A stretch of DNA of 64,000 bases from Oscillospiraceae bacterium (GCA_045628085.1 JAZQOZ010000147.1:3439-67438); one strand, 5' to 3'; shown: positions 3,981 to 28,195, counted from the stretch's first letter. Numbers and translations: made by a program. Notes: generated by a model from the letters alone, not told the origin.

Positions 3981-5195
3981 ATGAAAAAATTGCTTTTGCT
4001 TGGCGGTTCCCGTTACTTGATCCCTGTCATTGAAGCAGCACACAAGCTCGGCTGCTATGTTATCACCTGCGATTACCTGCCGGACAATACTGCACACAAG
4101 TTTGCAGATGAATACGTAAATGTCAGCATCATTGATAAGGATGCAACACTTGCGGCAGCGCAGAAACTCGAAATCGACGGCATTATGTCCTTTGCCTGTG
4201 ATCCGGGCGTTGTGACCGCTGCATACGTTGCCGAAAAAATGGGACTTCCCTTCCAGGGCTCCTATGAAGCAACCAGCATTTTACAGGACAAGGGTCTGTT
4301 CAGACAGTTCCTGACTGATAACGGCTTCAATGTTCCGCACGCAAAAAGATATACCGATAAGAAAGCACCGTATCAGGATGTTGATTTCTTCAACTGGCCT
4401 GTTATCGTAAAGCCGGTCGATTCGGCAGGCAGCAAGGGTGTCACAAAGGTTGAAACGCCGGATGACCTCGCAGAAGCAATCGAGACCGCAGTCGGCGGTT
4501 CGCATAATGCTGCATTTATCATCGAAGATTTCCTGACCTTCAAGGGCTATCATTCCAGCGCCGATCCGTTTACTGTTGACGGTAAATTGCAGTTTGTCAC
4601 TTATTCCGACCAGTTGTTTGACAAGGAAGCTGAAAATCCCTATACGCCGGCAAAGATCATCTGGCCGTCTACCATGAGCCAGAGCGATCAGGATTACCTG
4701 ACCGCCGAAACACAGCGCCTGATGGATCTGCTGAATATGGGTACCGGTATCTATAATATCGAAACCTGCGTCGGCAGCGACGGCAAACCGTATCTCATGG
4801 AAGTATCTCCGAGAGGCGGCGGCTGCAAGATCGCAGAGCTTCAGCGCATGGCATTCGGTGTTGATCTGATCGAAAATGAGGTTCGCAAAGCGATCGGTAT
4901 GCCTGTTGAAAATGTCCGTCAGACCGAATGTGACGGCTACTGGTGTGAAATGATCATTCATGCAAGACCGGGACAGAGCGGTACCTTTAAGGCTTTGAAA
5001 ATTGATCCGGAGATCGAGAAGAATCATGTCCAGTTAATTGATATGACCACAAAGCCGGGCGATTTTGTCCATCCGTTTACCGGCGCAAATATGTCGCTCG
5101 GCGATATGTTCCTGCGCTTCGATTCACGCGAGCAGCTCGATGAGACAATGGATCGCGTGAATGAATGGCTCACGATCGAATTAGAGGGTGAATGA
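3981..5195 (+). CDS. ATP-grasp domain ligase (carboxylate-amine ligase type)
   Basis: 404 aa. It has a pre-ATP-grasp N-terminus MKKLLLLGGSRYLIPVIEAA and the core WPVIVKPVDSAGSKGV. RBS AAAGGA. It shares architecture with the second ATP-grasp at 12710-13942. Confidence 0.8.
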   Translation: MKKLLLLGGSRYLIPVIEAAHKLGCYVITCDYLPDNTAHKFADEYVNVSIIDKDATLAAAQKLEIDGIMSFACDPGVVTAAYVAEKMGLPFQGSYEATSILQDKGLFRQFLTDNGFNVPHAKRYTDKKAPYQDVDFFNWPVIVKPVDSAGSKGVTKVETPDDLAEAIETAVGGSHNAAFIIEDFLTFKGYHSSADPFTVDGKLQFVTYSDQLFDKEAENPYTPAKIIWPSTMSQSDQDYLTAETQRLMDLLNMGTGIYNIETCVGSDGKPYLMEVSPRGGGCKIAELQRMAFGVDLIENEVRKAIGMPVENVRQTECDGYWCEMIIHARPGQSGTFKALKIDPEIEKNHVQLIDMTTKPGDFVHPFTGANMSLGDMFLRFDSREQLDETMDRVNEWLTIELEGE

Positions 5196-5196
5196 A

Positions 5197-5649
5197 ATGG
5201 CTTCATCATGCTCCATCTGTGAAGTAAAAAGTGCAGATCAGATTTTTGAAATACTATCTGACTTTCAGGACGCTTTGCCAATTCTTGGCTCAAGTACTGC
5301 ATTCCGAAAAGAAATGGCTGAAAAGCTTTCAAAATACGCTTTCGTTTTCCTATTGCAGATTGACCATGAAAATGCCGGTTTTGCTTCGATATATGCCAAC
5401 GACACAACTTCAAAAACCGGTTATATTTCATTTATTGCAATCGCTTCTAAATACAGAAAAATGCATTTGGGAACGCAGTTAATGAACACCTTGTTTTCGG
5501 CAGCAAAACAGAATCAAATGCAGTATGTGAAGCTCGAGGTCGCAAAAACCAATACGGTCGCACAGAGCTTTTATTCAAAATACGGTTTTCAATATCAATC
5601 TGAAGCAAGTGCTGACTCAATATATATGATAAAACAGATCGACGATTAA
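5197..5649 (+). CDS. GNAT family N-acetyltransferase
   Basis: Acetyl-CoA-binding-type motif IAIASKYRKMHLGTQLM...YSKYGF. The start is set at ATG 5197, with GAGGG 8 nt upstream. The track ORF begins at GTG 5188, overlapping the ATP-grasp stop. Confidence 0.75.
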   Translation: MASSCSICEVKSADQIFEILSDFQDALPILGSSTAFRKEMAEKLSKYAFVFLLQIDHENAGFASIYANDTTSKTGYISFIAIASKYRKMHLGTQLMNTLFSAAKQNQMQYVKLEVAKTNTVAQSFYSKYGFQYQSEASADSIYMIKQIDD

Positions 5650-5656
5650 AAGGACA

Positions 5657-5695
5657 CAGCCATGCGAACACAATTCGCATGGCTGTATCTTTTAT
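5657..5695 (+). terminator. rho-independent terminator after the ATP-grasp/GNAT pair
   Basis: 13-bp stem ACAGCCATGCGAA / TTCGCATGGCTGT with a 5-nt loop, followed by ATCTTTTA. Confidence 0.7.
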
Positions 5696-5699
5696 CCGC

Positions 5700-5739
5700 A
5701 TAAAAACAGAAAAGGCTGTCAGGATATATGACAGCCTTT
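5700..5739 (-). terminator. rho-independent terminator ending the long minus-strand operon
   Basis: 11-bp stem AAAGGCTGTCA / TGACAGCCTTT, followed on the minus strand by TCTGTTTTTAT. Confidence 0.65.
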
Positions 5740-5761: not shown

Positions 5762-6622
5762 TCAGCCAAGTTCAACAGTCGCAATACGCGGTTCAAAACA
5801 GCAGCAAGGTCTGACGCAGACAATGCGCACGCCGCTTGCTCTCTGCGGACCGACTTTCATAAATGTTGCGATAACGCTTGTTTTGCCGCCTAGTCCAAGC
5901 GGACCGATATTGGCTTCATTCACCCGTCTGGTGATCTCCTGCTCCATTTCAGACTGCACATCATAACAGCCGTCAGTCTGCGCCTGAAGCATCATGGATG
6001 CCGCCTCAAAATGCGAGCGTCCGACACCGACCGCGAGCGTACACGGTGAACAGCCAAGCTGTGAAACAGCCTCTTTGGACCAGTTCACGATTTCATCCAG
6101 TACCACCTGCGTATCATGTTTATGAAATACACGGTAAGTCTTTGCACGGATCGCAGGGCCGCCGCCAAACATCAGAATATGCAGACGGATAACATTCTCT
6201 TTGCATCTGCGCAGCAGGATCGGTGCAGGCTCAACACCTGCCGAATCCGGATTCAGTCCGCCGGACTGATCGATCCGCTGGCTGTCATTGCCCATAATCC
6301 CCATCGGACGTCCGGGCAGCTTGCGCAATCCCTCAACAATGCCCTCTTTGACTGCATCAAGCATTTTACCGGTCACAGGTGTATCTTCACCGATTTCCAG
6401 CACCAGATGCGGTATACCGGAATCATCGCAAAGCGGACTGCGGTTCTGTTCCGCTGCCTCTGCATTTTCCAGAACGGTTTCCAGAACCCATTTTGCTTTT
6501 TCGTTCGTTTCGGCAGCAGCCGCACGCTGATATGCATTCTTTTTATCCTGACGGAATGTTGAGCCGGCTTCCACGAGTGTATCTCTGACAAGCGAAACGA
6601 TCTCCTCATAGCTCTTACTCAT
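5762..6622 (-). CDS. Fe-S type hydro-lyase, alpha (catalytic N-terminal) subunit, of the tartrate/fumarate/mesaconate hydratase class I family
   Basis: MSKSYEEIVSLVRD...PLCDDSGIPHLVLEIGED is typical of TtdA / FumA N-terminal domains. Start trimmed to ATG 6622, which overlaps the stop of the beta gene by 8 nt (ATGAGTAA). Confidence 0.8.
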   Translation of the reverse strand: MSKSYEEIVSLVRDTLVEAGSTFRQDKKNAYQRAAAAETNEKAKWVLETVLENAEAAEQNRSPLCDDSGIPHLVLEIGEDTPVTGKMLDAVKEGIVEGLRKLPGRPMGIMGNDSQRIDQSGGLNPDSAGVEPAPILLRRCKENVIRLHILMFGGGPAIRAKTYRVFHKHDTQVVLDEIVNWSKEAVSQLGCSPCTLAVGVGRSHFEAASMMLQAQTDGCYDVQSEMEQEITRRVNEANIGPLGLGGKTSVIATFMKVGPQRASGVRIVCVRPCCCFEPRIATVELG

Positions 6623-7124
6623 AAATACTCCTCCCGTGTGCCGCGCCGATGATCGCAGGATATTCATTTACCTTTATGAGATGCAGTGCCTCCATGCCAA
6701 GCTCCGGAAACGCAATAACACGCTGCTCAGTCGTCTTTGCACCGAGCAAAGCCGTCACAGGCGGAATAACTGCATAGACTGCGTTATACTGATCGAGTGC
6801 TGCAACAGTTTCCGGATGCAGCGCACCCTTTCCGAGATGCAACTTGATACCGGCAGCCGAAAGCGGCGCGATGCTGCTCTCGATCTCCAGTTTATTACTG
6901 GAAGTCGGGCCGACACCGGCAGGACTGACCGCCGTGTGAAAGATCACCTGACCGTGCAGATCAACGCCGAGTTCCCCGACTGTGCCGTCCTCGATCATTT
7001 TCAGCACTTTCGGCAGAACGGCATCCCGTCCGCAAAGAATATATCCTGAAATCGTCACCGTATCACCGACTTGCAGACGATCAATGTCTGCATCCGTGAT
7101 CGGAGTAGTTAATGCAACTGCCAT
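6615..7124 (-). CDS. Fe-S type hydro-lyase, beta subunit (fumarase C-terminal domain family)
   Basis: 169 aa with GDTVTISGYILCGRDAVLPKV...LHLGKGAL, typical of TtdB / FumA C-terminal domains. The gene order here is beta then alpha. Confidence 0.8.
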   Translation of the reverse strand: MAVALTTPITDADIDRLQVGDTVTISGYILCGRDAVLPKVLKMIEDGTVGELGVDLHGQVIFHTAVSPAGVGPTSSNKLEIESSIAPLSAAGIKLHLGKGALHPETVAALDQYNAVYAVIPPVTALLGAKTTEQRVIAFPELGMEALHLIKVNEYPAIIGAAHGRSIYE

Positions 7125-7136
7125 ATAGCGCCTCGC

Positions 7137-8282
7137 TTACCAGTTGACCGCAAACAGTTTGACATAAGCGCCTTCATTTTCGATGACACCAAATGCCTTT
7201 GCGCGGTTGAGAATTTTCTTTGCCCAGTTTGTATGCGGTTTGATCTCATTCATCTTGTTGCCGCCTGAGCCTTTCACGACACCGCCCGATGTACCGAGGA
7301 TCTGGCAGGCATCGTTATACTCTTCCTTTGTGACCGCCATCATCGCATTCACAAACTTAACGTGTGTCGGATGGATAACGGTTCTGCCGATAAAGCCGTT
7401 CGCCTTATCCAGAATGACCTCACGCAGCAGACCGTCGATCTCATTGTTTACAAGCGGAATTCTGCGCATCAGATAGTCTTCCAGACCATGTTTCGGCAGT
7501 TCCTCAAACATCAATTCCTTCGGCGCACGGAAGTATTCCCAGACTGGTCCGGAGATCACATAATCATTATTTCTGCCGCAGACATTGACAATGTCACTGA
7601 GGCACTCGCGGACGGTCATAATATCATAAAGTGAATAATCAACACCACGGCGCACACCGAATACAGACGAGAAATCCGTACCGCCGACACGCACCTGCAA
7701 AACCAGATCATGATACTTGTCGAGGATCTTCTTGATGCCGACAAGCTCTGCCATTCTGGTTTCCTTGTAAGCGACCTCCGGATCTTCAATGATCGGCATA
7801 CCGTACAGGACTTCATCGAACCGTTCGTTCAGGTCCTCCAGAAATGCGAAATACTCATAGCCGTTTTCAGCATTGAATTTCGGGAAATTGACACCGCAGA
7901 GTGAACGAACCTGTTTCTTTGTCAGTCCTGCTGCAAAATGCTTGAACTGCGCAAGATTACGGATTCGCACAAAGATCAGCGGCACATATTCCGGTGCAAG
8001 TTCACCGCTGTCCACAGCATCCGTGACTGTATCGAGCAGATTATATACATTTTCCTCAGCTTCCGGTACGCGCTCCTCCGGACAAGCATCCTCAAAGCAC
8101 AAAACGATCGTTGTCAGACCGGGCATAACATGAGAAAGGATCTTCGGAGCAAAGTCCTTTGTTCCCGGCATATACATTGTTGCACCGAGACAGTATTGCA
8201 GCAGTTCACGATCGGTATACTTATTGAAAGTCTGCGGTTCTACAACGAATTTAAAATCAGGATTATACAGATGATGTCTCAT
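7137..8282 (-). CDS. CitE / HpcH-HpaI-like C-C lyase (citrate-lyase beta / acyl-CoA lyase fold), long 381-aa form
   Basis: Motifs are in CitE-like order: VLCFEDAC (DLEDA-like), IFVRIRN, MPIIEDPE, VGGTDFSSVFG, RTVIHPTHV (IHPxQ-like). RBS GAAGGAA. Confidence 0.6.
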   Translation of the reverse strand: MRHHLYNPDFKFVVEPQTFNKYTDRELLQYCLGATMYMPGTKDFAPKILSHVMPGLTTIVLCFEDACPEERVPEAEENVYNLLDTVTDAVDSGELAPEYVPLIFVRIRNLAQFKHFAAGLTKKQVRSLCGVNFPKFNAENGYEYFAFLEDLNERFDEVLYGMPIIEDPEVAYKETRMAELVGIKKILDKYHDLVLQVRVGGTDFSSVFGVRRGVDYSLYDIMTVRECLSDIVNVCGRNNDYVISGPVWEYFRAPKELMFEELPKHGLEDYLMRRIPLVNNEIDGLLREVILDKANGFIGRTVIHPTHVKFVNAMMAVTKEEYNDACQILGTSGGVVKGSGGNKMNEIKPHTNWAKKILNRAKAFGVIENEGAYVKLFAVNW

Positions 8283-8300
8283 GGAGATTCCTTCTTTCTA

Positions 8301-9203
8301 TCAGATGAGGCTGCCCTTCGGCGACCATACAGCCTCCGGATAGTATTCATCAATCATACGCTTTACAAGACTGCACTGCTTTGCACGCTTTCTTGCATCA
8401 TCCTCCGTGCTGTCCCAGCTATGCGTTGCAGCAACAGAACCGCCGGTCTTGAGGTAAAGCGGTGCAGCAACACGGATCATCTCCGGCACTTCATAGTGAC
8501 GGATAAAGCCGCCGGTAGACTTCGGGTTTTCCGTATGAATGTCGATCGGGCAGTCTACAGCCTGTCGCATTGCAGCGAGCATCTGGAGCTGAATATCACG
8601 AACAGGATTGATCGAATCCGCGCCGTTCAGTTCGAGCAGCTTTGCAGAACAGGGGTTGCCGTGACCTGCGTGTGCAGAGATCTTGAAATGGCAGTCAGCC
8701 GGGATCTCGCCTGCCTTGCGCATTTCGTTCAGCGCCCAGAGGCATCCCTCATCATAGACAAGGAAACCGCGGCAGCCGAGTCTTGCGGCACGCTTCACAT
8801 CCTCGATCGCACGGACGATCTGTTCCTGACCGCGCAGACGATAGCCCATGCGCACGCCTTCCTCGGTATGAACAGAAGCAGAAGTATCCGTTGTTGCACG
8901 CGGACCGACTGCAAGGATCAGGTCAGTCTGCCACTGATGTGCCAGCTCGACCATTTTGCTGATCTCCTCATCGGTCAGGCGCATAATGCCCTGTGTCTGT
9001 GTAACACGGTGCAGATAAAGACCATAGCCGTCCATTGCCTCAAGCAATGCCTTCATAACCTTCGGTCCCTGAATGCCCGGCACCTCAAAACGGTACTGAC
9101 CGCCGTCCTTGAAGCGTTTTTCTGAGGTCGGCATATCATAGGCATCTCCGCCCGGCAGACCGATCGACTTCAGAAATTCTCTCGTTTGTTCCATGCTGTT
9201 CAT
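8301..9203 (-). CDS. hypothetical protein, 300 aa, family not recognised (alternating beta/alpha pattern, possibly a TIM-barrel enzyme)
   Basis: Strong RBS AAGGAGG. It is packed tightly between the ThDP decarboxylase and the CitE-like gene (gaps of 15 and 18 nt). No signal peptide or TM segment. No motif I can assign. Confidence 0.7.
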   Translation of the reverse strand: MNSMEQTREFLKSIGLPGGDAYDMPTSEKRFKDGGQYRFEVPGIQGPKVMKALLEAMDGYGLYLHRVTQTQGIMRLTDEEISKMVELAHQWQTDLILAVGPRATTDTSASVHTEEGVRMGYRLRGQEQIVRAIEDVKRAARLGCRGFLVYDEGCLWALNEMRKAGEIPADCHFKISAHAGHGNPCSAKLLELNGADSINPVRDIQLQMLAAMRQAVDCPIDIHTENPKSTGGFIRHYEVPEMIRVAAPLYLKTGGSVAATHSWDSTEDDARKRAKQCSLVKRMIDEYYPEAVWSPKGSLI

Positions 9204-9218
9204 AGCTGTGATTCCTCC

Positions 9219-10352
9219 TTAGGTTTCGTTCAGATCGTCGATCAATGCATTGATCGCTGCATTGTGATCAAAAATGATCGGCGGCAGCTTACTGTTAAGC
9301 CCTTTATGGATCCGGCAGTCAATAAACGCTGCCTTGCCGCAGTCTTTCAGCTTTGCGATCGCTTCGATCAGCTCCTGCTCATTTTCAACAGCCTTACCGA
9401 CGGTTGCATAGCCGCACGCCTCTGCGATCTTCGTAAAATCAACCTTATGACCGGCAGAAGGCTGTCCGCCGACTGATTCATGTGCGCCGTTATTCAGGAC
9501 AACGTGCAGGAAATTCGGCACATTGTATTTGCTGACCATTGTCATTGCACCCATGTGCATCATACAGGCAGAATCGCCGTCCAGACAGACAACATTCCGC
9601 TGCGGTTTTTCCATTGCAATGCCGAGGGCAACGGATGACGCGTGTCCCATTGAACCGACATTCAGATAATCATGTGCTTTGGTCTCATTCCGGCGTTCGC
9701 GCAGGAAAAACAGTTCTCTTGTAGCACGTCCGGTCGTCGCAGAATAGATCGTATCTGCCGGCATCTGATCGAGAATAACCTCGATTGCTTCTTCGCGGCT
9801 CATCGGATATACTGCATCAACATTATTCGCCTTTTCCGCTGCCGCCATCACGCCTTTCGGGGCGATCAGCGCATAGGAACGGCGATTCTCACGGCAATAG
9901 GCAGCCGCCTTTGCGATTTCAGTCTGAAAATCCGCATCATCATCCTTGAGGATGCTGTAGGGAATATGCATCACATCGAGCAGACCGGGCGTGATCTCGC
10001 CCTGAAGCCGGTGCTGCGGATGATTCGGCTCAGTATTGCCCTGACCGCGCCAGCCGATCAGCAGAATCATCGGAACGGCATAGACATCATGCTCCGCAAG
10101 GGATGCAAGCGGATTGATCGTGTTGCCGAGTCCGCTGTTCTGCATATAAACGAGCGGGATTTCTTTTGTTGCAAAATAATGACCGCAGGCAATGCCGACC
10201 GCATTTCCCTCATTTGCTGCAATGACATTTCGCTCCGGCATATTCGCAAGCGCATAATTGCAGAAGCCGTTGAGGTAAGAATCCGGCACACCGGTAAAGA
10301 AGGTAATGCCTTGTTCTGCAAGTGCTTCAAAAACAAGTTTCTGATCTAACAT
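9219..10352 (-). CDS. phosphonopyruvate / sulfopyruvate decarboxylase family ThDP enzyme (fused alpha-beta form)
   Basis: 377 aa. The N-terminus FFTGVPDSYLNGFCNY...IAANEGNAVGIACGHYFATKEIPLVYMQNSGLGNTINPL...LLIGWRG closely mirrors AepY/Ppd-type decarboxylases. The C-terminal ThDP motif is CLDGDSACMMHMGAM...NNGAHESVGGQ. Confidence 0.8.
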   Translation of the reverse strand: MLDQKLVFEALAEQGITFFTGVPDSYLNGFCNYALANMPERNVIAANEGNAVGIACGHYFATKEIPLVYMQNSGLGNTINPLASLAEHDVYAVPMILLIGWRGQGNTEPNHPQHRLQGEITPGLLDVMHIPYSILKDDDADFQTEIAKAAAYCRENRRSYALIAPKGVMAAAEKANNVDAVYPMSREEAIEVILDQMPADTIYSATTGRATRELFFLRERRNETKAHDYLNVGSMGHASSVALGIAMEKPQRNVVCLDGDSACMMHMGAMTMVSKYNVPNFLHVVLNNGAHESVGGQPSAGHKVDFTKIAEACGYATVGKAVENEQELIEAIAKLKDCGKAAFIDCRIHKGLNSKLPPIIFDHNAAINALIDDLNET

Positions 10353-10361
10353 ACTGACTCC

Positions 10362-11327
10362 TTACTGTTTGGGCGACGGCTTGAACAGCGTGAAATATCC
10401 AGGACTGTCCGCATGGGTGATCCCCCATGCCTGCTCAAATGCAGCAACGATCTCCTCAGGCAGCGGACCTGCCTTGATCGTATCCATATTCTGCTGCAAA
10501 TGATGCAGTTTTGATGCACCGATAATAACCGCATCGCCGCGGTCCGCATTCAACATGGAATGATAGGCAAGCCAGCGATAGGTTGCCTCGATCGTTGTGA
10601 TACCGTACTTTTCGCAGACAGATTTCAGCAGATCAACTGCATCGAAAAAGCTCTTTTTCCAGTAGCGGTTCTGATAATTCGGGCGATGCGTGAATCTGCC
10701 GTCGGTCGGTGCATCCTCAAATTTCCCGTAACGTCCGGTCAGCAGACCGCCTGCCATCGGATTATAGGCACAGAAACGCATCCCGAAGTGATCGAGACAG
10801 GCATTCAATTCTCTTTCCGCCCTTCTGGTCAGCGGATTGTAGATGCCCTCAAAAACAGTCGGCTTCACCCAGCCGTTTTTATCGCAGAGATGCCAGACAT
10901 CAGCGACCATCCATGCAGGGAAATTGGAAAGACCAAGCTCCTTGAATTTGCCCTGTTCATGCAAATCTGCGCAGGCAGCCAGTACAGATTCAACGGGTGT
11001 TGCAGGATCGGGAAAATGCAGATAGAACGTATCCACATAATCGACCTGCAAGCGTTCAAGCGATTCATTGAGCTGCATATACGCCGCATCGCCGTCCAGT
11101 CTGCCCGTAATACGCGGATTGACCTTCGTTGCGATCTTCACACGCTCTCTGCCGATCGTTTTCAAAGCCTGACCGATCAGCTTTTCGCTTTGACCTTCAT
11201 TATAGACATAAGCCGTGTCCAGTTCATCATATCCTGCATCAAGAAATGCCTGAATAAATGCTTCAGAATCCGGTGCAAAGACCGATTCTCCAAAGGTCAT
11301 CGTACCCAGGATCAGTTTCATGCTCAT
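10362..11327 (-). CDS. aldo/keto reductase
   Basis: MSMKLILGTMTFGE...LDTAYVYNEGQSEKLIGQAL is the classic AKR N-terminus. The start is set at the ATG with GAGGGA 7 nt upstream. The track ORF extends 5 codons further. Confidence 0.85.
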   Translation of the reverse strand: MSMKLILGTMTFGESVFAPDSEAFIQAFLDAGYDELDTAYVYNEGQSEKLIGQALKTIGRERVKIATKVNPRITGRLDGDAAYMQLNESLERLQVDYVDTFYLHFPDPATPVESVLAACADLHEQGKFKELGLSNFPAWMVADVWHLCDKNGWVKPTVFEGIYNPLTRRAERELNACLDHFGMRFCAYNPMAGGLLTGRYGKFEDAPTDGRFTHRPNYQNRYWKKSFFDAVDLLKSVCEKYGITTIEATYRWLAYHSMLNADRGDAVIIGASKLHHLQQNMDTIKAGPLPEEIVAAFEQAWGITHADSPGYFTLFKPSPKQ

Positions 11328-11344
11328 TGCGTTTTCCCTCATAA

Positions 11345-12688
11345 TTATAAATATTGCAGCAGTTCAGGAACGGTTGAATCAGTTTCTTGCACCAGTGCAA
11401 ATACCTTTTCACCGGATGCTTCACTGATGCCCGCATACGCCATCAGATCGAGATATCTTTCATGGAATTCCGCATCATTCAGCGGATTTTCCGGCTCTCC
11501 CTTCGGGAAGTCCACACGTTCGGTATAGCTTTGTGCAGCCGTCCTGATCGTGACAACTGCGGTCTGTTCGGCAGGGAATGCCGCGCTCATTTTCTCATCC
11601 GCCGCAACTTTCACCTTTGCAGTCAGCCCGAGGATTTCCTGATCCTTTACCATATCCTCACTGAATTCCTGCAAGCCTGCCTTACCGTAGATCAATGCAG
11701 CAGCGGTGCTGTACGGAATGCTCATCTTTGCAGAATAAGAACCGGGGATCTCCGTATGATCGTGACCGGAGACTGCCAGAGAATAGGTCTGAATGTCGAT
11801 CTGCTCCACATCAGCAGCCTTGATGCCGTACTGATTGCGCAGATGGATCGCCGCCTCAACAGACGGATGCGTATAGCGGCAGGATGCATAGGGCTTTGTA
11901 TAGCTCTTGGAGATCGCGTATGTGCCGTTGAGCAGGAACGGCTTCATTTCAACATCTGCACTGCCGGTCATCATTTTCAGATAGCCGCGCGGCGCACCAA
12001 GCGGATCCGGATGTCCTTTGAAGCCCGATTTTGCAAGCTGAACTGCCGTCAGTGCAAGCAGTGCGCTCTTTGCAACATTATAAGGCTTCAGCTCAGAACC
12101 GTCATCCAGAACAAGCAGCATACCGGATGCCGAAACACACGCAGCAGCAAACGCCTGCTCACGTTCTTCCTCAGTAAATCCAAGCAGATAAGATGCCGCG
12201 ATCGCCGCACCAAGTACACCGCAGGTACCGGTCGCATGATAGCCCAATGCTTTATGTCCGGGCTGAATCGATACTGCCATTGTATATGATGTTTCATAGC
12301 CGATGATTGCTGCACGGAGAACTGCATCGACCGTATAGCCGTAACGCTGTGCAAGCGGAAGCAGCAGCGAAAAAATCGGTGAACCGAGATGAATGATACC
12401 GGAGTTTGTTCCGTCATCAAAATCAAGCGCATGACCGTTCAGACCGTTCAGGAAAACAGCTTCCTTGAGCGTATAGGATCTTCCTGTTCCGATTGCTTTG
12501 AATGCGCCCTGTTCCGGCTCTGCAAAATCATAATATTTTGCAAGCTTTTCAGCCTGAAAGCGGCTGCCTGCGCAGGCAACTGCAAGGTAATCAAGCAGCG
12601 AACGCTTTGCTCTTGCATAAACAGCATCCGGAATCGGCTGTGCTGCAAGAGTGCGGATATTCTGCAAATATGCCTCGGTCTTTGTCAT
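11345..12688 (-). CDS. MmgE/PrpD family protein (2-methylcitrate dehydratase / cis-aconitate decarboxylase superfamily)
   Basis: 447 aa with RAKRSLLDYLAVACAGS...LNGHALDFDD...HLGSPIF, characteristic of MmgE/PrpD. Confidence 0.85.
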   Translation of the reverse strand: MTKTEAYLQNIRTLAAQPIPDAVYARAKRSLLDYLAVACAGSRFQAEKLAKYYDFAEPEQGAFKAIGTGRSYTLKEAVFLNGLNGHALDFDDGTNSGIIHLGSPIFSLLLPLAQRYGYTVDAVLRAAIIGYETSYTMAVSIQPGHKALGYHATGTCGVLGAAIAASYLLGFTEEEREQAFAAACVSASGMLLVLDDGSELKPYNVAKSALLALTAVQLAKSGFKGHPDPLGAPRGYLKMMTGSADVEMKPFLLNGTYAISKSYTKPYASCRYTHPSVEAAIHLRNQYGIKAADVEQIDIQTYSLAVSGHDHTEIPGSYSAKMSIPYSTAAALIYGKAGLQEFSEDMVKDQEILGLTAKVKVAADEKMSAAFPAEQTAVVTIRTAAQSYTERVDFPKGEPENPLNDAEFHERYLDLMAYAGISEASGEKVFALVQETDSTVPELLQYL

Positions 12689-12709
12689 TGTACACCATCC
12701 TTTTTCGTA

Positions 12710-13942
12710 TTAGTTCATTTCAAGCGGCGGGAGCAGATCATGCCGCATCATATCATTGCCGTTTTCGTCAATGACCTTCACATGATCCGAAATATATTGC
12801 TGTTTGGCGTTAAATTCCTCAACAGATGCAGCAAGAATATTCATGCCGGCAACACGGTCGCTGCTGCTTGTTACACCGCGGATCACCGTGCCCTTGCTGC
12901 GGACAGGATGGAATTCATGAATGATTCCCTCTTTTTCGAGTTCTTCAAATCCTTCAAAATGATCGAGAACACCCGGCTGACAGTAGATAAAGTCATTGAC
13001 AACAACCTTATTTCCGGTATCACGCTTTGTCAGATCGGGCACCTTGCCGAGGGTAATGTCGATTGCAGCGGTGATGACATCCACACCGCTGGAATATTTG
13101 ATGAGCAGCCATTTCATATTGCCGCCGGTTCGCGCACAAAATTCCAGAACAGAAATACGGCTGCCGTTATGCAGAAGCTGCACAAGCAGCGGAGAATTGA
13201 CAAGGCCGAACGCATCTGCGATCTTCTGCGTCACAGTTTCGATCTGCTCCATGATCGTATCCGGCACACAAACCGGATATCTGCCGCGGAAAATAACGAA
13301 ACGGTCATCACTCTTGACCTTGTCGCTGTTGGAAACGCAAAGGATCTTTGCCTTGCCGTTTACAACAAAAGCATCGACGCTGATCTCCTCACCGGCAAAA
13401 AATTCTTCCACAATGACACCGCCGGTACGGCTGATCTGTGCAGCCTCATGATAATACTGCACAAGCTCCTCATGCGTGGATGCCTTACGGACACCCTTTG
13501 AGCTGTATGCATCCACGGGCTTGATCACAAGCGGATACTGAAGCTGGCTGATCTTTTCCTCATCGAGCTCCGGCATTTCGATATAACGGGTAGACGGAAT
13601 GCCGTTCTCATGGAAGATACGCTTCATGCGGATCTTATCCGATACATTCATACCGGTTTCATAATCAATGTAGCACGGAAGACCGAGTGCCTCCGATACC
13701 TGTGCAACGACCAGAAGTACCTGATCGGCACAGACCGTGATCAGAAAATCAACTTTTTCATCCAGCGCGATCTTCTTCACCGCTTCAATATCAAAAATAT
13801 CAACCTGATAAAAAATATCAGCAAAGGATTTGGCGATCGGCGTAGCGCTGCCGTCCGCCAGAACAGTTGTGATATTTCGTTCCCGAAGCTGCCGCAGCAG
13901 CTCAGCCTGCGGTACACCGCCTGCAAGTACAAGAGCTTTCAA
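12710..13942 (-). CDS. ATP-grasp domain ligase (second copy)
   Basis: 410 aa with MKALVLAGG...YPLVIKPVDAYSSKGV. TTG start with GGGAGG 6 nt upstream. Same architecture as the 3981-5195 protein. Confidence 0.8.
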   Translation of the reverse strand: MKALVLAGGVPQAELLRQLRERNITTVLADGSATPIAKSFADIFYQVDIFDIEAVKKIALDEKVDFLITVCADQVLLVVAQVSEALGLPCYIDYETGMNVSDKIRMKRIFHENGIPSTRYIEMPELDEEKISQLQYPLVIKPVDAYSSKGVRKASTHEELVQYYHEAAQISRTGGVIVEEFFAGEEISVDAFVVNGKAKILCVSNSDKVKSDDRFVIFRGRYPVCVPDTIMEQIETVTQKIADAFGLVNSPLLVQLLHNGSRISVLEFCARTGGNMKWLLIKYSSGVDVITAAIDITLGKVPDLTKRDTGNKVVVNDFIYCQPGVLDHFEGFEELEKEGIIHEFHPVRSKGTVIRGVTSSSDRVAGMNILAASVEEFNAKQQYISDHVKVIDENGNDMMRHDLLPPLEMN

Positions 13943-14020: not shown

Positions 14021-14665
14021 TTATTTTTTGCTTGTCAGTTCGTCTTCTTTTTTGAATTCGATTTTTTCGCGTTTCAATACAACTGCAACCGTTTTGAACA
14101 TGATCTTCAAATCAAACCACAGGCTGAATTTGTCAACATATTCCACGTCGTATGCAATTTTTTCTGTCCAGGTCAGATTGTTTCTGCCGTTGACCTGTGC
14201 CCAGCCGGTCAGACCGGGCTTCATGTCCAGTCTTCTGCGCTGCTCATCGTTATATTTCTCCGCCTGATACGGCAAAGTCGGTCGGGGACCGACAAAGCTC
14301 ATCGTACCTTCCAGAATATTGAAAAGCTGCATCAGCTCATCCAGACTGGTTTTCCGGAGAAATGCGCCGAGTTTCGTGATACGGGTGCTGGAAGGCTCCA
14401 GAATGTCGCCGTTCGGCTTATGCAGAACACCATTGACGCTGTATGTTCCTTCCGGCGGCTGCCGCATGGTACGAAACTTATAGATCTTGAATATTTTGCC
14501 GTTCTTTCCGACTCTCTCCTGCTTGAATACGGCACCGCCCTTGGATTCCAGAACGATCGCGATCGGAATCACGATCAGAACCGGTATCACAGTCAGAAGC
14601 AGGATCAGAATAAGGGATACAATGATATCAAACAGACGCTTGACCGCTAATTGAAACGCTTTCAT
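14021..14665 (-). CDS. small (PglC/WcaJ C-terminal-type) undecaprenyl-phosphate sugar-phosphate transferase (Bac_transf family)
   Basis: 214 aa with one N-terminal TM segment, then KIYKFRTM...[21 protein letters not shown]...[13 protein letters not shown]. Confidence 0.9.
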
Positions 14666-14668
14666 TTA

Positions 14669-15697
14669 TTACACCTCTGCACGATTTCCGTACATTTTCT
14701 CATAATAATTTCTGTACTCACCGGAGATGATGGTTTCCCACCATTCCTTATTGTCCAGATACCACTTGATCGTCTTTTTGATACCGTCAGCAAATTTTGT
14801 TTCCGGCAGCCAGCCAAGCTCATTATGGATCTTTGTCGGATCGATCGCATAACGCATATCGTGACCTTTTCTGTCCTCAACATGAATAATGAGCGATTCC
14901 GGCTTGCCAAGTTCCTTACAGATCAGCTTCACGATATCGATATTCTTCATCTCATTGTGACCGCCGACATTATAGACCTCGCCGACCTTTCCCTTATGGA
15001 TGATGAGGTCGATCGCACGGCAATGATCCTCGACATAGAGCCAGTCGCGGACATTCAGTCCCTCACCGTAAACCGGAAGCGGCTTATCATTCAGCGCATT
15101 TGCGATCATCAGCGGGATCAGCTTTTCCGGAAAATGATACGGTCCGTAGTTGTTGGAGCAGCGGCTGATCGTAACAGGCAAACCATAGGTACGATGATAT
15201 GCCAGAACGAGCAGATCAGCACCTGCCTTGGACGAGCTGTAAGGGCTGCTTGTATGGATCGGCGTTGTTTCGGTAAAGAACAGGTCAGGTCTGTCCAGCG
15301 GAAGATCGCCGTAAACCTCATCCGTTGAAACCTGATGATAACGCTGAATGCCGTACTTCCGGCAGGCATCCATCAGCGTTGCAGTACCGATGATATTCGT
15401 CTGAAGGAAGATCTCCGGATTCTCAATGCTGCGGTCAACATGAGATTCTGCCGCAAAATTGACAACGATATCCGGCTTTTCCTCCTCAAAGAGCTGATAT
15501 ACACCTTCACGGTCGCAGATATCCAGCTTGACAAAGCGGAAATTCGGATTCTGCATGACCGGTGCAAGCGTTGAAAGGTTGCCTGCATAGGTCAGCTTAT
15601 CCAGACAGATGATTCGGTAATCCGGATATGTGTTCAGCATATGGAACACAAAGTTTGCGCCGATAAAGCCTGCGCCGCCTGTTACGATAATGGTCAT
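14669..15697 (-). CDS. rfbB: dTDP-glucose 4,6-dehydratase
   Basis: MTIIVTGGAGFIGANFV...YSSSKAGADLL. Start trimmed to ATG 15697, which overlaps the rfbA stop by 4 nt (ATGA). The N-terminal 35 codons of the track ORF lie inside rfbA. Confidence 0.92.
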   Translation of the reverse strand: MTIIVTGGAGFIGANFVFHMLNTYPDYRIICLDKLTYAGNLSTLAPVMQNPNFRFVKLDICDREGVYQLFEEEKPDIVVNFAAESHVDRSIENPEIFLQTNIIGTATLMDACRKYGIQRYHQVSTDEVYGDLPLDRPDLFFTETTPIHTSSPYSSSKAGADLLVLAYHRTYGLPVTISRCSNNYGPYHFPEKLIPLMIANALNDKPLPVYGEGLNVRDWLYVEDHCRAIDLIIHKGKVGEVYNVGGHNEMKNIDIVKLICKELGKPESLIIHVEDRKGHDMRYAIDPTKIHNELGWLPETKFADGIKKTIKWYLDNKEWWETIISGEYRNYYEKMYGNRAEV

Positions 15698-16572
15698 GCT
15701 TCTTCCTCCGCAAGTGAAATCAGATACTTTCCGTAATCTGTCATTGACAATTCTTCTCCGCACTGACGAAGCTGCTCTCTGGAAATAAAGCCTCTGCGCC
15801 ATGCGATCTCCTCAATGCAGGAGATATAGAATCCCTGCATTTCCTGCACGGTCTTTACAAAATCGCCTGCCTTGAGCATTCCTTCCGGTGTGCCGGTGTC
15901 GAGCCATGAAATGCCTCTGCCCATCAGCGTTACCTTGAGACTGCCGGCATCCAGATAATGGTTATTGACCGATGTGATCTCAATTTCGCCGCGTGCAGAC
16001 GGCTTGACGTTCTTTGCGATCTGCACAACATCATTATTATAGAAATACAGTCCCGGAACAGCATAATTGGATTTCGGCTGTGCCGGCTTTTCTTCAATGG
16101 AGATCACGCGGTTCTGATCGTCAAATTCGACCACACCGAATGCCTTGGGATTCTTCACAGGGAATCCGAAGATCGCAGCACCGAATGTTTCAGCCTGCTG
16201 CTTTGCATCATTGAGCATCCGTGTCAGATCTTTTCCATAGAATACATTGTCGCCGAGTACCAGACATACGCTGTCATCTCCGATAAAATCAGCACCGAGG
16301 ATAAACGCATCTGCAAGTCCGCGCGGTGTATCCTGCACCTTATACTCGATATGCACGCCGATACGGCTGCCGTCACCGAGCAGCTTACGATAATTCGGCG
16401 TATCATCCGGTGTCGAAATGACAAGGATATCACGGATACCGGCAAGCAGAAGGACGGAAAGCGGATAATAAACCAGCGGCTTATCATAAATCGGGAGGAG
16501 CTGCTTGCTGACAGCGATCGTATTCGGATAAAGGCGAGTGCCTTTACCGCCTGCAAGAATAATTCCTTTCAT
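15694..16572 (-). CDS. rfbA: glucose-1-phosphate thymidylyltransferase
   Basis: MKGIILAGGKGTRLYPNTIAVSKQLLPIYDKPLVYYPLSVL is the canonical RmlA N-terminus. 292 aa. Confidence 0.95.
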   Translation of the reverse strand: MKGIILAGGKGTRLYPNTIAVSKQLLPIYDKPLVYYPLSVLLLAGIRDILVISTPDDTPNYRKLLGDGSRIGVHIEYKVQDTPRGLADAFILGADFIGDDSVCLVLGDNVFYGKDLTRMLNDAKQQAETFGAAIFGFPVKNPKAFGVVEFDDQNRVISIEEKPAQPKSNYAVPGLYFYNNDVVQIAKNVKPSARGEIEITSVNNHYLDAGSLKVTLMGRGISWLDTGTPEGMLKAGDFVKTVQEMQGFYISCIEEIAWRRGFISREQLRQCGEELSMTDYGKYLISLAEEEA

Positions 16573-16582
16573 GATGATTCCC

Positions 16583-17695
16583 TCACTTTTTACAGGACAG
16601 GATCACATCGCAGATACGCTGTACATCCGACGGTGCCAGTTCCTCATAAAGCGGCAGAGTCAGGACGCGCAGACTGATCCGGAGTGCGATCGGCGTTTCA
16701 TTTGCATCGAATGCGCCGTGGAAACAGTCAAAAGTATTCGTCAGCGGATAGAAGTATTTACGTGCGCCGATGCCGTTCTGATCGAGCTTTTCCATAACAT
16801 CATCACGGCTTGCACCAAATACGGTTTCATCAAAGACCGCAGGGAAATAAGCGTAATTGGATTCGACATCTTCCTGAATCGGGCTCAGCTGAATACCTGC
16901 TACGCCTTCCAGATTCGCTCTGTAAACCTCGACAGCTTTCTTTCTGCGTTCGATCGCGGTATCAAGATGCCGCAGATTACAGATACCCATAGCTGCCTGA
17001 AATTCATTCATTTTGGCATTTCCGCCGACATAAGGCACATATTCAGGACCTTCAATGCCAAAGTTTTTCAGATCATTCAAACGCTGAACAAGCGCATCGT
17101 CATGGAAACAGACAGAGCCGCCCTCGATCGTATTGAATACCTTCGTTGCGTGGAAGCTGAACATTGCGGCATCACCGTAGCAGGCGGAGCTTTTTCCCTT
17201 ATAGCGGACTCCGAACGCGTGTGCGGCATCATATACGACTTTCAGACCGTATTTATCAGCAATGCGGCTGATCTCCTCAACATCGCACATATTGCCGTAA
17301 ACATGGACCGGAACGATTGCACAAGTCTTTTCCGTGATCAGCGCCTCGATCTTTGCTGTATCAATCGTAAAGGTCAGCGGATCAATGTCACAGAAAACAG
17401 GTTTCAGGCGGTTTCTTACAATCGCGTGCGTTGTAGAAGCAAAGGTAAAGGGCGTAGTGATCACCTCGCCGCCTTCCGGCAAATCAAGCGCAGAAAGGAT
17501 ATGCTCCAGTGCGAGATGTCCGTTCGTATACAGTACAACGTGCGGCACATCGAGAAGCTGCTCCAGATCAGCCTGAAGTTTCTGATGCTTGACACCCATA
17601 TTGGTCAGCCAATGGCTGTCCCAAAGCTCTTTGATTTCCTCACAATACTCCTGATAATCAGGCATAGAAGAACGGGTAACTAATATTCTCTCCAT
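16583..17695 (-). CDS. DegT/DnrJ/EryC1/StrS family sugar aminotransferase, probably acting on dTDP-4-keto-6-deoxyhexose
   Basis: PLP-lysine motif SFHATKVFNTIEGG. It lies immediately upstream of rfbA and rfbB. ATG 17695 has AGGTGG 5 nt upstream. The track ORF starts at GTG 17704. Confidence 0.85.
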   Translation of the reverse strand: MERILVTRSSMPDYQEYCEEIKELWDSHWLTNMGVKHQKLQADLEQLLDVPHVVLYTNGHLALEHILSALDLPEGGEVITTPFTFASTTHAIVRNRLKPVFCDIDPLTFTIDTAKIEALITEKTCAIVPVHVYGNMCDVEEISRIADKYGLKVVYDAAHAFGVRYKGKSSACYGDAAMFSFHATKVFNTIEGGSVCFHDDALVQRLNDLKNFGIEGPEYVPYVGGNAKMNEFQAAMGICNLRHLDTAIERRKKAVEVYRANLEGVAGIQLSPIQEDVESNYAYFPAVFDETVFGASRDDVMEKLDQNGIGARKYFYPLTNTFDCFHGAFDANETPIALRISLRVLTLPLYEELAPSDVQRICDVILSCKK

Positions 17696-17826
17696 GACAA
17701 CCACCTACATTTACATAATGTTTTATGCGGTTGATTCCGCAAATTTGCAACTTGCCTGTACAGCCTGCTGTCCGACCGAACGCTGTATTCCCGATCATGT
17801 CCGTATCCTGCTACGGCAGAAAGGCT

Positions 17827-23798: not shown

Positions 23799-23858
23799 AT
23801 GATATCGGATCCAATGTCCGGTTTATGTCATTACTGCATTTTTACTGAGGTGATAAAC

Positions 23859-24884
23859 ATGGCAGCAATCCTGCTTGCAGGCGGTGCGGGATATATCGGC
23901 TCCCATACTGCCGTTGAACTGCTGAATGCCGGCTATGAGGTGATCGCGGCAGATAATTTTGTCAACAGCACACCCGAAGCGATCAGCATAGTTGAAAGAA
24001 TTACCGGTAAGCAAGTGAAACTCTATGAAACGGATATCCGCGATACAGAAAAGCTTTCAGAGATCTTCTCTGAAAACCGGATCGACGCAGTCATTCATTT
24101 TGCCGGGCTGAAAGCAGTCGGTGAATCTGTCCAAAAGCCGCTGATGTATTACAGAAACAATCTCGATACCACGCTTTCCCTGCTGGAAACGATGCAGAAA
24201 GCAGATATCAAAAATATCATCTTTTCCTCCAGCGCAACTGTTTACGGTGAGCAGAATCCTGTTCCGTATACCGAAGATATGCAGCGCGGTGTCTGCTCAA
24301 ATCCCTACGGCTGGACAAAGGCGATGAGCGAACAGATCTTTGAGGATGCCGCCAAAGCAGATCCGGAACTTTCTGTCGTACTGCTGCGGTACTTCAACCC
24401 CATCGGTGCGCATCCGTCCGGAATGATCGGAGAAGATCCCCTCGGTATTCCGAATAACCTGATGCCGTTCATCACGCAGGTCGCCGTCGGAAAACGTGAA
24501 TGCCTGACGATCTTCGGAAAAGATTACCCGACAAAAGACGGCACCTGCACACGGGATTATATCCACGTTGTCGATCTTGCAAAAGGTCATGTAAAAGCTG
24601 TCGATTATGTGCTGAACCACAAAGGAACGGAGATCTTTAATCTCGGGACAGGTACGCCTTACAGCGTAACGGAGATCGTCCGGACCTTTGAACGGGTAAA
24701 CGGCGTGAGCGTACCCCATGTATACGGCAGCAGACGCGCAGGCGATCTGCCGGAATTCTTTGCAAATGCAGATAAAGCGAAAAAAACACTCGGCTGGGAA
24801 ACCGAAAAAACGCTTGAGGATATGTGCAGAGATGCATGGACATGGCAAAAGCAGAATCCGGACGGATACCGGAAACCGGAATAG
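23859..24884 (+). CDS. galE: UDP-glucose 4-epimerase
   Basis: MAAILLAGGAGYIGSHTAVELL...SSSATVYG...YGWTKAM. Start trimmed to the ATG preceded by GAGGTGA. Confidence 0.92.
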   Translation: MAAILLAGGAGYIGSHTAVELLNAGYEVIAADNFVNSTPEAISIVERITGKQVKLYETDIRDTEKLSEIFSENRIDAVIHFAGLKAVGESVQKPLMYYRNNLDTTLSLLETMQKADIKNIIFSSSATVYGEQNPVPYTEDMQRGVCSNPYGWTKAMSEQIFEDAAKADPELSVVLLRYFNPIGAHPSGMIGEDPLGIPNNLMPFITQVAVGKRECLTIFGKDYPTKDGTCTRDYIHVVDLAKGHVKAVDYVLNHKGTEIFNLGTGTPYSVTEIVRTFERVNGVSVPHVYGSRRAGDLPEFFANADKAKKTLGWETEKTLEDMCRDAWTWQKQNPDGYRKPE

Positions 24885-28020: not shown

Positions 28021-28049
28021 ATTATATCACCGTATCATATAATTGTCAA
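28021..28049 (-). promoter_or_regulatory. sigma-A type promoter upstream of the DctM-like gene
   Basis: Reverse strand TTGACA-17 nt-TATAAT. Confidence 0.55.
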
Positions 28050-28121
28050 TAGGAAAATCAAATAAAATCTGCATATATTCTGAAAAGATCATAAACCCGC
28101 TATTTCATCAGATTCCCCTAT

Positions 28122-28150
28122 TGCATTCACTGCATCTATATGATATAATA
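28122..28150 (+). promoter_or_regulatory. sigma-A type promoter for the dockerin-peptidase gene
   Basis: TTGCAT-17 nt-TATAAT, 45 nt upstream of ATG 28196. Confidence 0.5.
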
Positions 28151-28195
28151 GATAATAGGTTCATTTCACCATACTTTCAGACGAGGTATATTACT

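Follow-up and report, generated by a model that had tools for sequence, protein, structure and literature searches.

The stretch of DNA analysed here comprises 64,000 nt from Oscillospiraceae bacterium (GCA_045628085.1 JAZQOZ010000147.1:3439-67438), and the whole of it is referred to as the window. Eight minus-strand genes at 5762-13942, inside a glycan locus, encode an ATP-grasp ligase and seven further proteins. The seven constitute a conserved module of fixed order that has no published description, and one of them, a 300-aa protein that we call Unk, belongs to a new family of triosephosphate isomerase (TIM) barrel enzymes. We propose that the seven genes form a small-acid pathway and that the ATP-grasp ligase joins its hydroxy product to the amino sugar of the locus. 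We give this proposal about an even chance.

An earlier sequence-only reading of this DNA had described eight co-directional, closely packed genes directly downstream of the initiating transferase gene. All eight open reading frames (ORFs) are present at the coordinates it gave, and the gaps and the position behind the Bac_transf gene were confirmed. The family of each protein was assigned by Pfam and NCBIfam profile searches, which bore out the families already named, including the 300-aa protein without an assignable one. The genes are, in order of transcription:

12710-13942, minus strand: ATP-grasp ligase of the L-amino-acid-ligase/PurD type (Pfam PF13535 ATP-grasp_4, GARS_A, LAL_C2).
11345-12688, minus strand: MmgE/PrpD-family enzyme (Pfam PF03972 and PF19305, the MmgE_PrpD N and C domains).
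10362-11342, minus strand: aldo-keto reductase (AKR; PF00248 Aldo_ket_red, 221 bits).
9219-10352, minus strand: thiamine diphosphate (ThDP)-dependent 2-oxo acid decarboxylase of the phosphonopyruvate decarboxylase (Ppd) clade (TPP_enzyme N and C; TIGR03297, 406.5 bits, cut-off 312.5).
8301-9203, minus strand: Unk, 300-aa protein of a new family, predicted (beta/alpha)8 TIM barrel (no family match; AlphaFold2 model).
7137-8282, minus strand: C-C bond lyase/synthase (CCL; PF15617 C-C_Bond_Lyase, 382 bits).
6615-7124, minus strand: Fe-S hydro-lyase beta subunit (FumB), class I fumarase/tartrate dehydratase superfamily (PF05683 Fumerase_C).
5762-6667, minus strand: Fe-S hydro-lyase alpha subunit (FumA; PF05681 Fumerase, 169 bits).

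The gaps between the ORFs were 21, 2, 9, 15, 18 and 12 nt in gene order. The beta and alpha ORFs of the Fe-S hydro-lyase overlap by 53 nt, probably owing to an over-long start call for the alpha subunit.

The distribution of the module was determined by a scan of one genome per species with Unk as the query. It turned up relatives in the genomes of 392 species, which belong to five phyla or more and cover Bacillota, Bacteroidota, Spirochaetales, Victivallales and Kiritimatiellae, and the best 80 of the 392 were 89-99% identical to the query. The carriers include Oscillospiraceae, Lachnospiraceae, Ruminococcus, Erysipelotrichaceae, Spirochaetales, Victivallales and Kiritimatiellae; among the named ones are Hungatella effluvii DSM 24995, Sarcina sp. 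DSM 11001, Lachnospiraceae bacterium NE2001 and Butyricimonas muris GBG-M4. The order MmgE-AKR-Ppd-Unk-CCL-FumB-FumA recurs in about 70 independent loci, which is not a matter of chance. The ATP-grasp gene stands outside this invariant unit. Protein identity was highest for Unk (89-99%), followed by CCL (approximately 80-89%), the Fe-S subunits (70-90%), the decarboxylase (70-92%), AKR (66-88%) and the MmgE protein (64-74%). Recent horizontal transfer was considered as the cause of the high identity and rejected. The guanine-cytosine (GC) content of the module ranged from 0.38 to 0.65 and followed that of the host flanks (r = 0.94), and the Unk genes had median identities of 91% for protein, 78% for DNA and 47.5% at third codon positions. 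Because the GC content tracks the host and the synonymous third positions are near saturation, these comparisons indicate that the block spread long ago and has been kept under very strong purifying selection across hundreds of species from gut and rumen. Literature searches found no paper on the gene combination, in keeping with the first impression that it is not a described pathway, and nothing relevant on PF15617 or on Ppd homologues without a phosphoenolpyruvate (PEP) mutase.

Unk is the most conserved gene of the module. It gave nothing significant in Pfam (E ≤ 10), NCBIfam, a phmmer search of the PDB or a profile search of the PDB. Among clusters at 90% identity, 5,445 are close to Unk, of which the best 120 reach at least 86% identity, and the family has 988 cluster representatives at 50% identity. 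The AlphaFold2 model built from a diverse alignment was a (beta/alpha)8 barrel with a predicted local distance difference test (pLDDT) score of 93 and a predicted template modelling (TM) score of 0.91. Foldseek searches of the PDB returned generic TIM barrels only (TM-score approximately 0.5), namely U32 peptidase, class II aldolases, proteins of the isocitrate lyase/PEP mutase (ICL/PEPM) fold, the pyruvate carboxylase transferase domain and dihydrodipicolinate synthase (DHDPS). S27, F31, E40, G143, D151, S176, R213, R235 and P248 are invariant throughout the family, and D33, R145, K174, N183 and K252 are among the near-invariant residues. Since most of the conserved charged residues sit on or beside the predicted barrel strands, the model would fit a metal-dependent enzyme acting on an anionic substrate. 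NCBI names relatives of Unk as U32 peptidases, and this candidate was rejected: PF01136 reached E = 0.18 and 11.5 bits against a cut-off of 22.4, the U32 structure 5d88 was the top Foldseek match with a TM-score of just 0.41-0.49, and the family has no invariant cysteines. Profile comparison with hhalign gave a probability of 0.2% for a relation to PEP mutase and showed no relation to CCL.

The neighbours of more distant Unk relatives extend this picture. The nearest outgroup (55% identity) lies in a cluster of the order GntR-Unk-TctCBA-MmgE/PrpD-DHDPS, so Unk is again associated, outside the module, with an MmgE enzyme and a C-C enzyme of the aldolase type. Other relatives stand beside hydantoinase A/B and DUF1989, or beside IclR, an enolase-superfamily dehydratase (MR_MLE), ABC transporters, amidohydrolases, a short-chain dehydrogenase/reductase and an AKR. 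One relative has asparagine-synthase-like, HpcH-like and TauD-like neighbours; in an Enterobacter plasmid cluster, another comes after a phosphotransferase gene. The relative at L106:101-4384 (42% identity) is in translational coupling with a 2-phosphosulfolactate phosphatase of the ComB family (PF04029), after which come an adenylation-carrier protein and a TylF-type methyltransferase. As a lead only, the Enterobacter phosphotransferase and the ComB-family neighbour hint that phosphorylated acids with three carbons, for example PEP, may be substrates or products of the Unk family, and the ComB-family neighbour hints that it may make or use phosphorylated hydroxy acids.

The decarboxylase belongs, by its sequence, inside the genuine Ppd clade and not with the acetolactate-synthase type, as the sequence-only reading had it. 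It scored 406.5 bits with TIGR03297, the equivalog model of phosphonopyruvate decarboxylase, and fell below the ComDE cut-offs (TIGR03846, 108.5 versus 221.5; TIGR03845, 87.6 versus 147.95). The catalytic glutamate E48 and the ThDP motif G-D258-G...N288 are conserved. The reference set consisted of five AepY proteins from loci in which aepY adjoins aepX. The module enzyme showed 40-42% identity to AepY of Fulvitalea and Segatella (Bacteroidota) and 31-34% to AepY of Mycetohabitans, Rhizobium and Streptomyces, and genuine AepY proteins from different phyla are 32-38% identical to each other. Fifty residues are invariant in both the module decarboxylases and the five AepY proteins. Six AepY-invariant positions have been switched and are conserved in the module in their new state: L to K174, G to S261, A to T271, P to A341, R to P358 and P to H363.

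A PEP mutase would be the usual companion of such an enzyme in these reference loci. None was found in the whole 64-kb window, either by a six-frame scan for the motif EDKxxxxxNS or by tblastn with five PEP mutases (best E = 0.26), which upholds the earlier statement that it is missing. The ComA, ComB and ComC families had no member among the eight proteins in Pfam. Of 86 related loci, 85 had no PEP mutase within approximately 10 kb of the module. In the five reference loci aepX adjoins aepY without exception, and in no module locus does a PEP mutase adjoin the decarboxylase. By this missing link and the residue switches, the module decarboxylase does not look like a Ppd fed by a linked mutase. 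The sole PEP mutase among the 86 loci is a nucleotidyltransferase-PEP mutase fusion within L034:16040-19286, with 76% identity to aepX of Segatella copri. At 3-6 kb downstream of the module (L034:6494-13497), it does not adjoin the decarboxylase, and directly after it comes an iron-dependent alcohol dehydrogenase (Fe-ADH) resembling phosphonoacetaldehyde reductase (46% identity); an aepY is missing from between the two. Over the 21 kb of this locus in view, the module's own gene, 6 kb upstream of aepX, is the sole member of the Ppd family. This single anecdote hints that the module decarboxylase may still decarboxylate phosphonopyruvate.

These data bear on a conventional phosphonate pathway in which the PEP mutase is encoded elsewhere in the genome, the decarboxylase and AKR make 2-hydroxyethylphosphonate (HEP), and the other genes are unrelated neighbours. 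We regard this as very improbable. It would accommodate the Ppd-clade assignment and the aepX of L034, which lacks an aepY of its own, and the analysis covers the 64-kb window; however, the link to PEP mutase that holds in all five reference loci is missing from 85 of the 86 module loci. The seven genes are also inherited as one block with the decarboxylase in its middle, and no cytidylyltransferase or LicD-type transferase was found among the eight genes with Pfam. For a PEP-mutase-dependent phosphonate cluster, the mutase itself is what the window lacks; an enzyme that could pull the mutase reaction forward is present, either Ppd or, in the variant cassettes described below, a reductase resembling phosphoglycerate dehydrogenase (PGDH).

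The variant cassettes lack both the decarboxylase and AKR. Eight loci and a further large clade from the protein search were of this type. They carry a D-2-hydroxyacid dehydrogenase (2-Hacid_dh) upstream of a divergent MmgE gene (35-39% identity); by score, this dehydrogenase resembles PGDH and glyoxylate reductase (215 and 200 bits) and not VanH (113 bits). The remaining module genes are kept, at identities to the main type of 90-95% for Unk, 59% for CCL and 72-86% for the Fe-S subunits, which also speaks against the other genes being mere neighbours of a phosphonate pathway. Since the decarboxylase and AKR are exchanged for the dehydrogenase, it follows that the decarboxylase does not open the pathway and is one of two alternative routes for processing a 2-oxo acid. 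The swap thus points to a 2-oxo acid intermediate. The variant cassettes adjoin FdtA and DegT or DegT and RmlA/B. These gene sets lead to 3- or 4-amino-dideoxyhexoses.

Among the other enzymes of the block, AKR always adjoins the decarboxylase, both being lost together in the variant cassettes, and it conserves D42, K73 and H109; it is presumed to be an aldehyde reductase acting after the decarboxylase. The MmgE protein is closer in sequence to IRG1/cis-aconitate decarboxylase and iminodisuccinate (IDS) epimerase than to PrpD. Its PDB matches were Bacillus subtilis IRG1 (2e-30), IDS epimerase (2e-29) and then cis-aconitate decarboxylase, with PrpD at 5e-7. With the PrpD equivalogs, whose cut-offs are 575 and 458 bits, it scored 33 and 24, the methylcitrate cycle partners PrpB and PrpC are not present, and H100, H151, K201 and K265 are conserved. 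CCL is a remote relative of CitE, CLYBL and malyl-CoA lyase. Its profile matched citrate lyase beta, CLYBL and malyl-CoA lyase in the PDB weakly, and it shares the xxCEDxx metal motif and the GFxGxxxIHP motif with citrate lyase beta/CLYBL; the CitE and RipC equivalog cut-offs were missed. The structure model of CCL was poor (pLDDT 60, shallow alignment) and was taken as support only, with malyl-CoA lyase accounting for all top 25 Foldseek matches.

The two subunits of the Fe-S hydro-lyase were identified by PF05681, PF05683 and the cluster cysteines; C80, C206, C209, C284, C289 and C290 of the alpha subunit are conserved in 77 homologues. The best fumarase equivalogs reached 84-102 bits against cut-offs of 238-276, TtdA 59 against 365 and TtdB 70 against 264. 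The closest structures to the ATP-grasp ligase were a PurD-like protein and the L-amino acid ligases 3vot and 4wd3, and it is presumed to be the coupling enzyme. Because the family assignments hold and the catalytic residues, conserved in all seven module enzymes, are intact, all eight enzymes look functional as judged from their sequences. Pfam detected no CoA ligase or CoA transferase family in the module. For the known catabolic operons of tartrate, citramalate/itaconate and methylcitrate, no equivalog was reached at any step, and literature searches were empty.

The genomic contexts were classified for the 57 loci that had enough flank. Glycan genes only were found in 36 loci, transporter or regulator genes only in 13, both in 5 and neither in 3. 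The earlier idea of the module as specifically a glycan-tailoring unit is not supported, with 13 of 57 loci being stand-alone operons and 5 more mixed. The ATP-grasp gene occurs in 37 of the 41 glycan-type loci (several with two copies) and in none of the transporter-type loci. DegT is present in 15 of the 41, and in some loci DegT, RmlA/B or FdtA stand beside the module, so the suggested link to an amino-dideoxyhexose remains plausible. In the stand-alone operons, the genes upstream of MmgE include regulators and transporters of the organic-acid or glycoside type and take two forms: LysR with a permease of the DctM-type tripartite ATP-independent periplasmic (TRAP) class and a 96-aa membrane protein, or an AraC regulator with GPH symporters. 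Their neighbours are housekeeping genes (YceG, U32, a Cys/Met pyridoxal phosphate enzyme) and a GH2 glycosidase. Pfam on the flanks of L084 and L078 (Kiritimatiellae) gave nothing useful, and the ORF calls in this GC-rich DNA are probably wrong.

In the mixed loci L046, L044, L026, L063/L065 and L067, TRAP permease and/or LysR genes adjoin the module inside glycan-type loci, and in L046 they occur together with Bac_transf and the ATP-grasp gene. Because of this arrangement, the precursor may sometimes be imported for glycan decoration.

The stand-alone operons raise the alternative that the module serves to degrade or assimilate an organic acid or acid sugar from outside the cell, of the tartrate, aconitate, citrate or aldarate type. 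Its end products would be CO2 and an alcohol that the cell excretes, and its placement in glycan loci would reflect co-transfer or precursor supply. Fermentations typically finish with a decarboxylase and then a reductase, in line with this alternative. The LysR/TRAP and AraC/GPH operons amid housekeeping genes agree with this, as do the distant Unk relatives in catabolic-looking clusters (GntR with TctABC, MmgE and DHDPS; IclR with MR_MLE and an ABC transporter; hydantoinase A/B). Orthologous blocks thus do occur outside glycan loci, although not as a known catabolic operon: the equivalog models of tartrate dehydratase, fumarase, PrpD, CitE and RipC were all unreached. Against catabolism, 36 of the 57 loci are glycan loci without a transporter, 37 of the 41 glycan-type loci have an ATP-grasp gene, and every variant cassette seen lies in a glycan locus, at least three of them with amino-sugar genes nearby. 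In addition, cleavage of the CitE/malyl-CoA-lyase type needs a thioester, and the module has no CoA transferase or ligase. We consider the catabolic pathway, including its glycan-locus placement by co-transfer or precursor supply, unlikely.

The decoration pathway that we propose would run as follows. Unk, CCL, the Fe-S hydro-lyase and the MmgE/PrpD protein would build a 2-oxo acid of the type X-CH2-CO-COOH, in which X would be anionic and would most likely include a carboxylate. The Ppd-clade enzyme would take off C1 as CO2, and AKR would turn the resulting aldehyde into an omega-hydroxy compound. In the variant cassettes the 2-oxo acid would instead become a D-2-hydroxy acid. In this window, the ATP-grasp ligase would finally couple the product to the 4-amino-4,6-dideoxyhexose implied by RmlA, RmlB and DegT, either as an amide through the retained carboxylate or, as in VanH/VanA, through the newly made hydroxyl. 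In the stand-alone operons, the same chemistry would use or yield a transported acid. The preferred substrates of Ppd and PGDH-like enzymes are 3-substituted pyruvates. The absence of a CoA ligase or transferase from the module favours a synthetic, acetyl-CoA-consuming direction for CCL. Pyruvate or oxaloacetate is unlikely as the 2-oxo acid, as central metabolites need no five dedicated enzymes. The products considered were 3-hydroxypropionate, D-malate, 2,4-dihydroxybutyrate from 4-hydroxy-2-oxoglutarate, acids derived from itaconate or citramalate and deoxy acids derived from aldarate, and none of them is claimed.

Several points weigh against this proposal. The stand-alone operons with importers and LysR or AraC look catabolic, not biosynthetic. 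The module has no oxidoreductase that could create the 2-oxo group, which must then come from a dehydration, a lyase step or the substrate. If X had no carboxylate, the main-type product would have none for an amide. Finally, the decarboxylase sits among genuine Ppd enzymes, a position that agrees with a phosphonate substrate no less than with a carboxylate one.

The last point leads to the possibility that a carbon-phosphorus (C-P) or carbon-sulfur (C-S) bond is made without a canonical PEP mutase. Unk would act on PEP, either like a mutase or by adding a nucleophile as ComA does, to give phosphonopyruvate, sulfopyruvate or the lactate forms, the decarboxylase with AKR or the PGDH-like enzyme would pull the reaction forward, and the ATP-grasp ligase would esterify the hydroxyl. 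The decarboxylase lies above the Ppd cut-off and nests among aepX-adjacent AepY proteins, and both downstream options match known sinks of phosphonopyruvate, namely Ppd and VlpB-type reduction (PMC8942020). Unk is an approximately 300-aa TIM barrel, always beside the decarboxylase, with invariant Arg, Lys and acidic residues; its relatives coupled to a ComB-family phosphatase or placed after a phosphotransferase gene, and the aepX of L034 with the module Ppd as the sole Ppd-family gene in view, would also agree.

Other observations do not agree with such a route. Unk is unlike PEP mutase by profile, the EDKxxxxxNS motif is absent, and its Foldseek matches to the ICL/PEPM fold were no better than those to other TIM barrels. 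Most Unk relatives have no Ppd-type sink at all, and a simple route to HEP or isethionate would not need MmgE, CCL or the Fe-S hydro-lyase. Importer and regulator contexts are unusual for phosphonate biosynthesis, and the arginine invariant in the five AepY proteins is a proline in all module enzymes. We therefore judge a mutase-free C-P or C-S route improbable. The C-P or C-S product suggested at first has no positive evidence beyond the family of the decarboxylase, which sister cassettes lack, and a phosphonate or sulfonate product is not supported. Overall, the interpretation given in the sequence-only reading is partly supported.

In gut and rumen bacteria, surface polysaccharides influence how the cells interact with phages, the immune system and other species, and the non-sugar decorations of these polysaccharides are mostly unknown. 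At least 392 species genomes carry the module, purifying selection on it is unusually strong, and it has no published description. Among its proteins is a member of a TIM-barrel family to which no function is assigned and which has approximately 1,000 cluster representatives at 50% identity. Annotation pipelines will label the module decarboxylase as phosphonopyruvate decarboxylase though no PEP mutase is near. Either this label is wrong for thousands of genes, or pepM-based surveys miss part of phosphonate biology. If the mutase-free C-P or C-S route were true, the glycans of hundreds of gut and rumen species would carry phosphonate or sulfonate decorations that escape pepM-based mining. The dual context of the module suggests that one small acid is used in two ways, as a metabolite and to decorate the cell surface.

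The genes and signals around the block are as follows; those upstream belong to the same operon.

16583-17704, minus strand: DegT aminotransferase (Pfam).
15694-16572, minus strand: RmlA (Pfam).
14669-15802, minus strand: RmlB (Pfam).
14021-14665, minus strand: Bac_transf initiating transferase, directly 5' of the ATP-grasp gene (Pfam).
5711-5739, minus strand: intrinsic-terminator-like hairpin at the operon end, directly 3' of the last stop codon (11-bp stem, 5 G-C pairs, T-rich tail).
5653-5689, both strands: second, bidirectional terminator-like hairpin common to the operon and the convergent ATP-grasp/GNAT genes (17-pair stem).
5188-5649, plus strand: convergent GNAT acetyltransferase (Pfam).
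3981-5195, plus strand: convergent second ATP-grasp ligase of the L-amino-acid-ligase type (Pfam).

The terminator described earlier after the block was thus located, as a hairpin at 5739-5711 on the minus strand with the bidirectional one at 5689-5653 behind it. The DegT, RmlA, RmlB and Bac_transf genes are the likely source of the amine acceptor. The RmlB ORF runs 109 nt into the end of RmlA, and its true start is probably downstream of the listed one, because the Pfam match begins only at about residue 36. Farther upstream on the same strand, Pfam detected a flippase, GT2, an EpsG-type polymerase, an acetyltransferase and a second DegT. Homologues of the second ATP-grasp ligase (3981-5195) adjoin the module elsewhere; those in L013 and L040 are 55-58% identical to it along their full length. 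This ligase and the GNAT protein possibly belong to the same decoration, which may involve two ligation steps since several related loci carry two ATP-grasp genes.

Long plus-strand antisense ORFs of up to 395 aa cross 5762-13942, one of which (7938-9125) spans the Unk and CCL genes. They are most likely non-coding shadows that recur in related loci only because the DNA is conserved. Just past the glycan operon, an uncharacterised nucleotidyltransferase of PF14907 (24912-26054, plus strand) adjoins a gene for an NAD-dependent epimerase/dehydratase (23799-24884); this family is an unusual PEP mutase neighbour in one gene-cluster family (PMC8942020). The product of 28043-29431 (plus strand) combines a type I dockerin with a C39-like peptidase domain, which suggests a cellulosome-bearing host of the Ruminococcus/Oscillospiraceae type.

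The module was compared with known systems. The AepX-AepY loci with AepZ or phosphonoacetaldehyde reductase, such as those of Segatella copri DSM 18205 and Bacteroides fragilis polysaccharide B, likewise place a Ppd-family decarboxylase before an aldehyde reducer in a surface-polysaccharide locus. The module differs from them in having no PEP mutase, an AKR instead of an Fe-ADH, and no cytidylyltransferase or LicD/CDP-alcohol transferase; it has five extra enzymes and the ATP-grasp ligase, and its decarboxylase is dispensable in sister cassettes. The coenzyme M route (ComA-ComB-ComC-ComDE) is similar in its TIM-barrel first enzyme, the option of a 2-hydroxyacid dehydrogenase and a Ppd/ComDE-superfamily decarboxylase acting on a 3-substituted pyruvate, and one Unk relative adjoins a ComB-family phosphatase. 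The module decarboxylase, however, falls below the ComD/ComE cut-offs, and no module protein, Unk included, matches the ComA or ComB family.

The methylcitrate cycle and 2-oxoacid elongation (PrpC/PrpD/aconitase/PrpB; LeuA/LeuCD) also combine a C-C enzyme, an MmgE/PrpD-type enzyme and an Fe-S hydro-lyase on small polycarboxylates. In the module, the C-C enzyme (PF15617) is CitE/malyl-CoA-lyase-like and not citrate-synthase- or HMGL-like, the hydro-lyase is of the fumarase/tartrate dehydratase type and not of the aconitase/LeuCD type, the MmgE protein resembles IRG1 and IDS epimerase, and no dehydrogenase of the isocitrate or isopropylmalate type is present. Pantaphos biosynthesis is a phosphonate copy of this logic. 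The FrbC/FR-900098 route is another (PMC8942020).

For the final coupling, VanH-VanA resembles the variant cassettes in pairing a D-2-hydroxyacid dehydrogenase with an ATP-grasp ligase. The cassettes differ in lying in glycan loci rather than serving a peptidoglycan precursor, and their dehydrogenase is PGDH/glyoxylate-reductase-like and their ligase L-amino-acid-ligase/PurD-like. In Vibrio cholerae O1, a small hydroxy acid made by enzymes of the locus decorates a 4-amino-4,6-dideoxyhexose, giving 3-deoxy-L-glycero-tetronyl perosamine. The tetronyl pathway uses an acyl carrier protein, an AMP-ligase, an Fe-ADH and an acyltransferase, so the proposed end use is shared whereas the enzyme set of the module is entirely different. 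Locus-encoded synthesis of a non-sugar glycan substituent is thus known, and the region would be a new form of it that includes an unassigned enzyme family and is unusually widely distributed.

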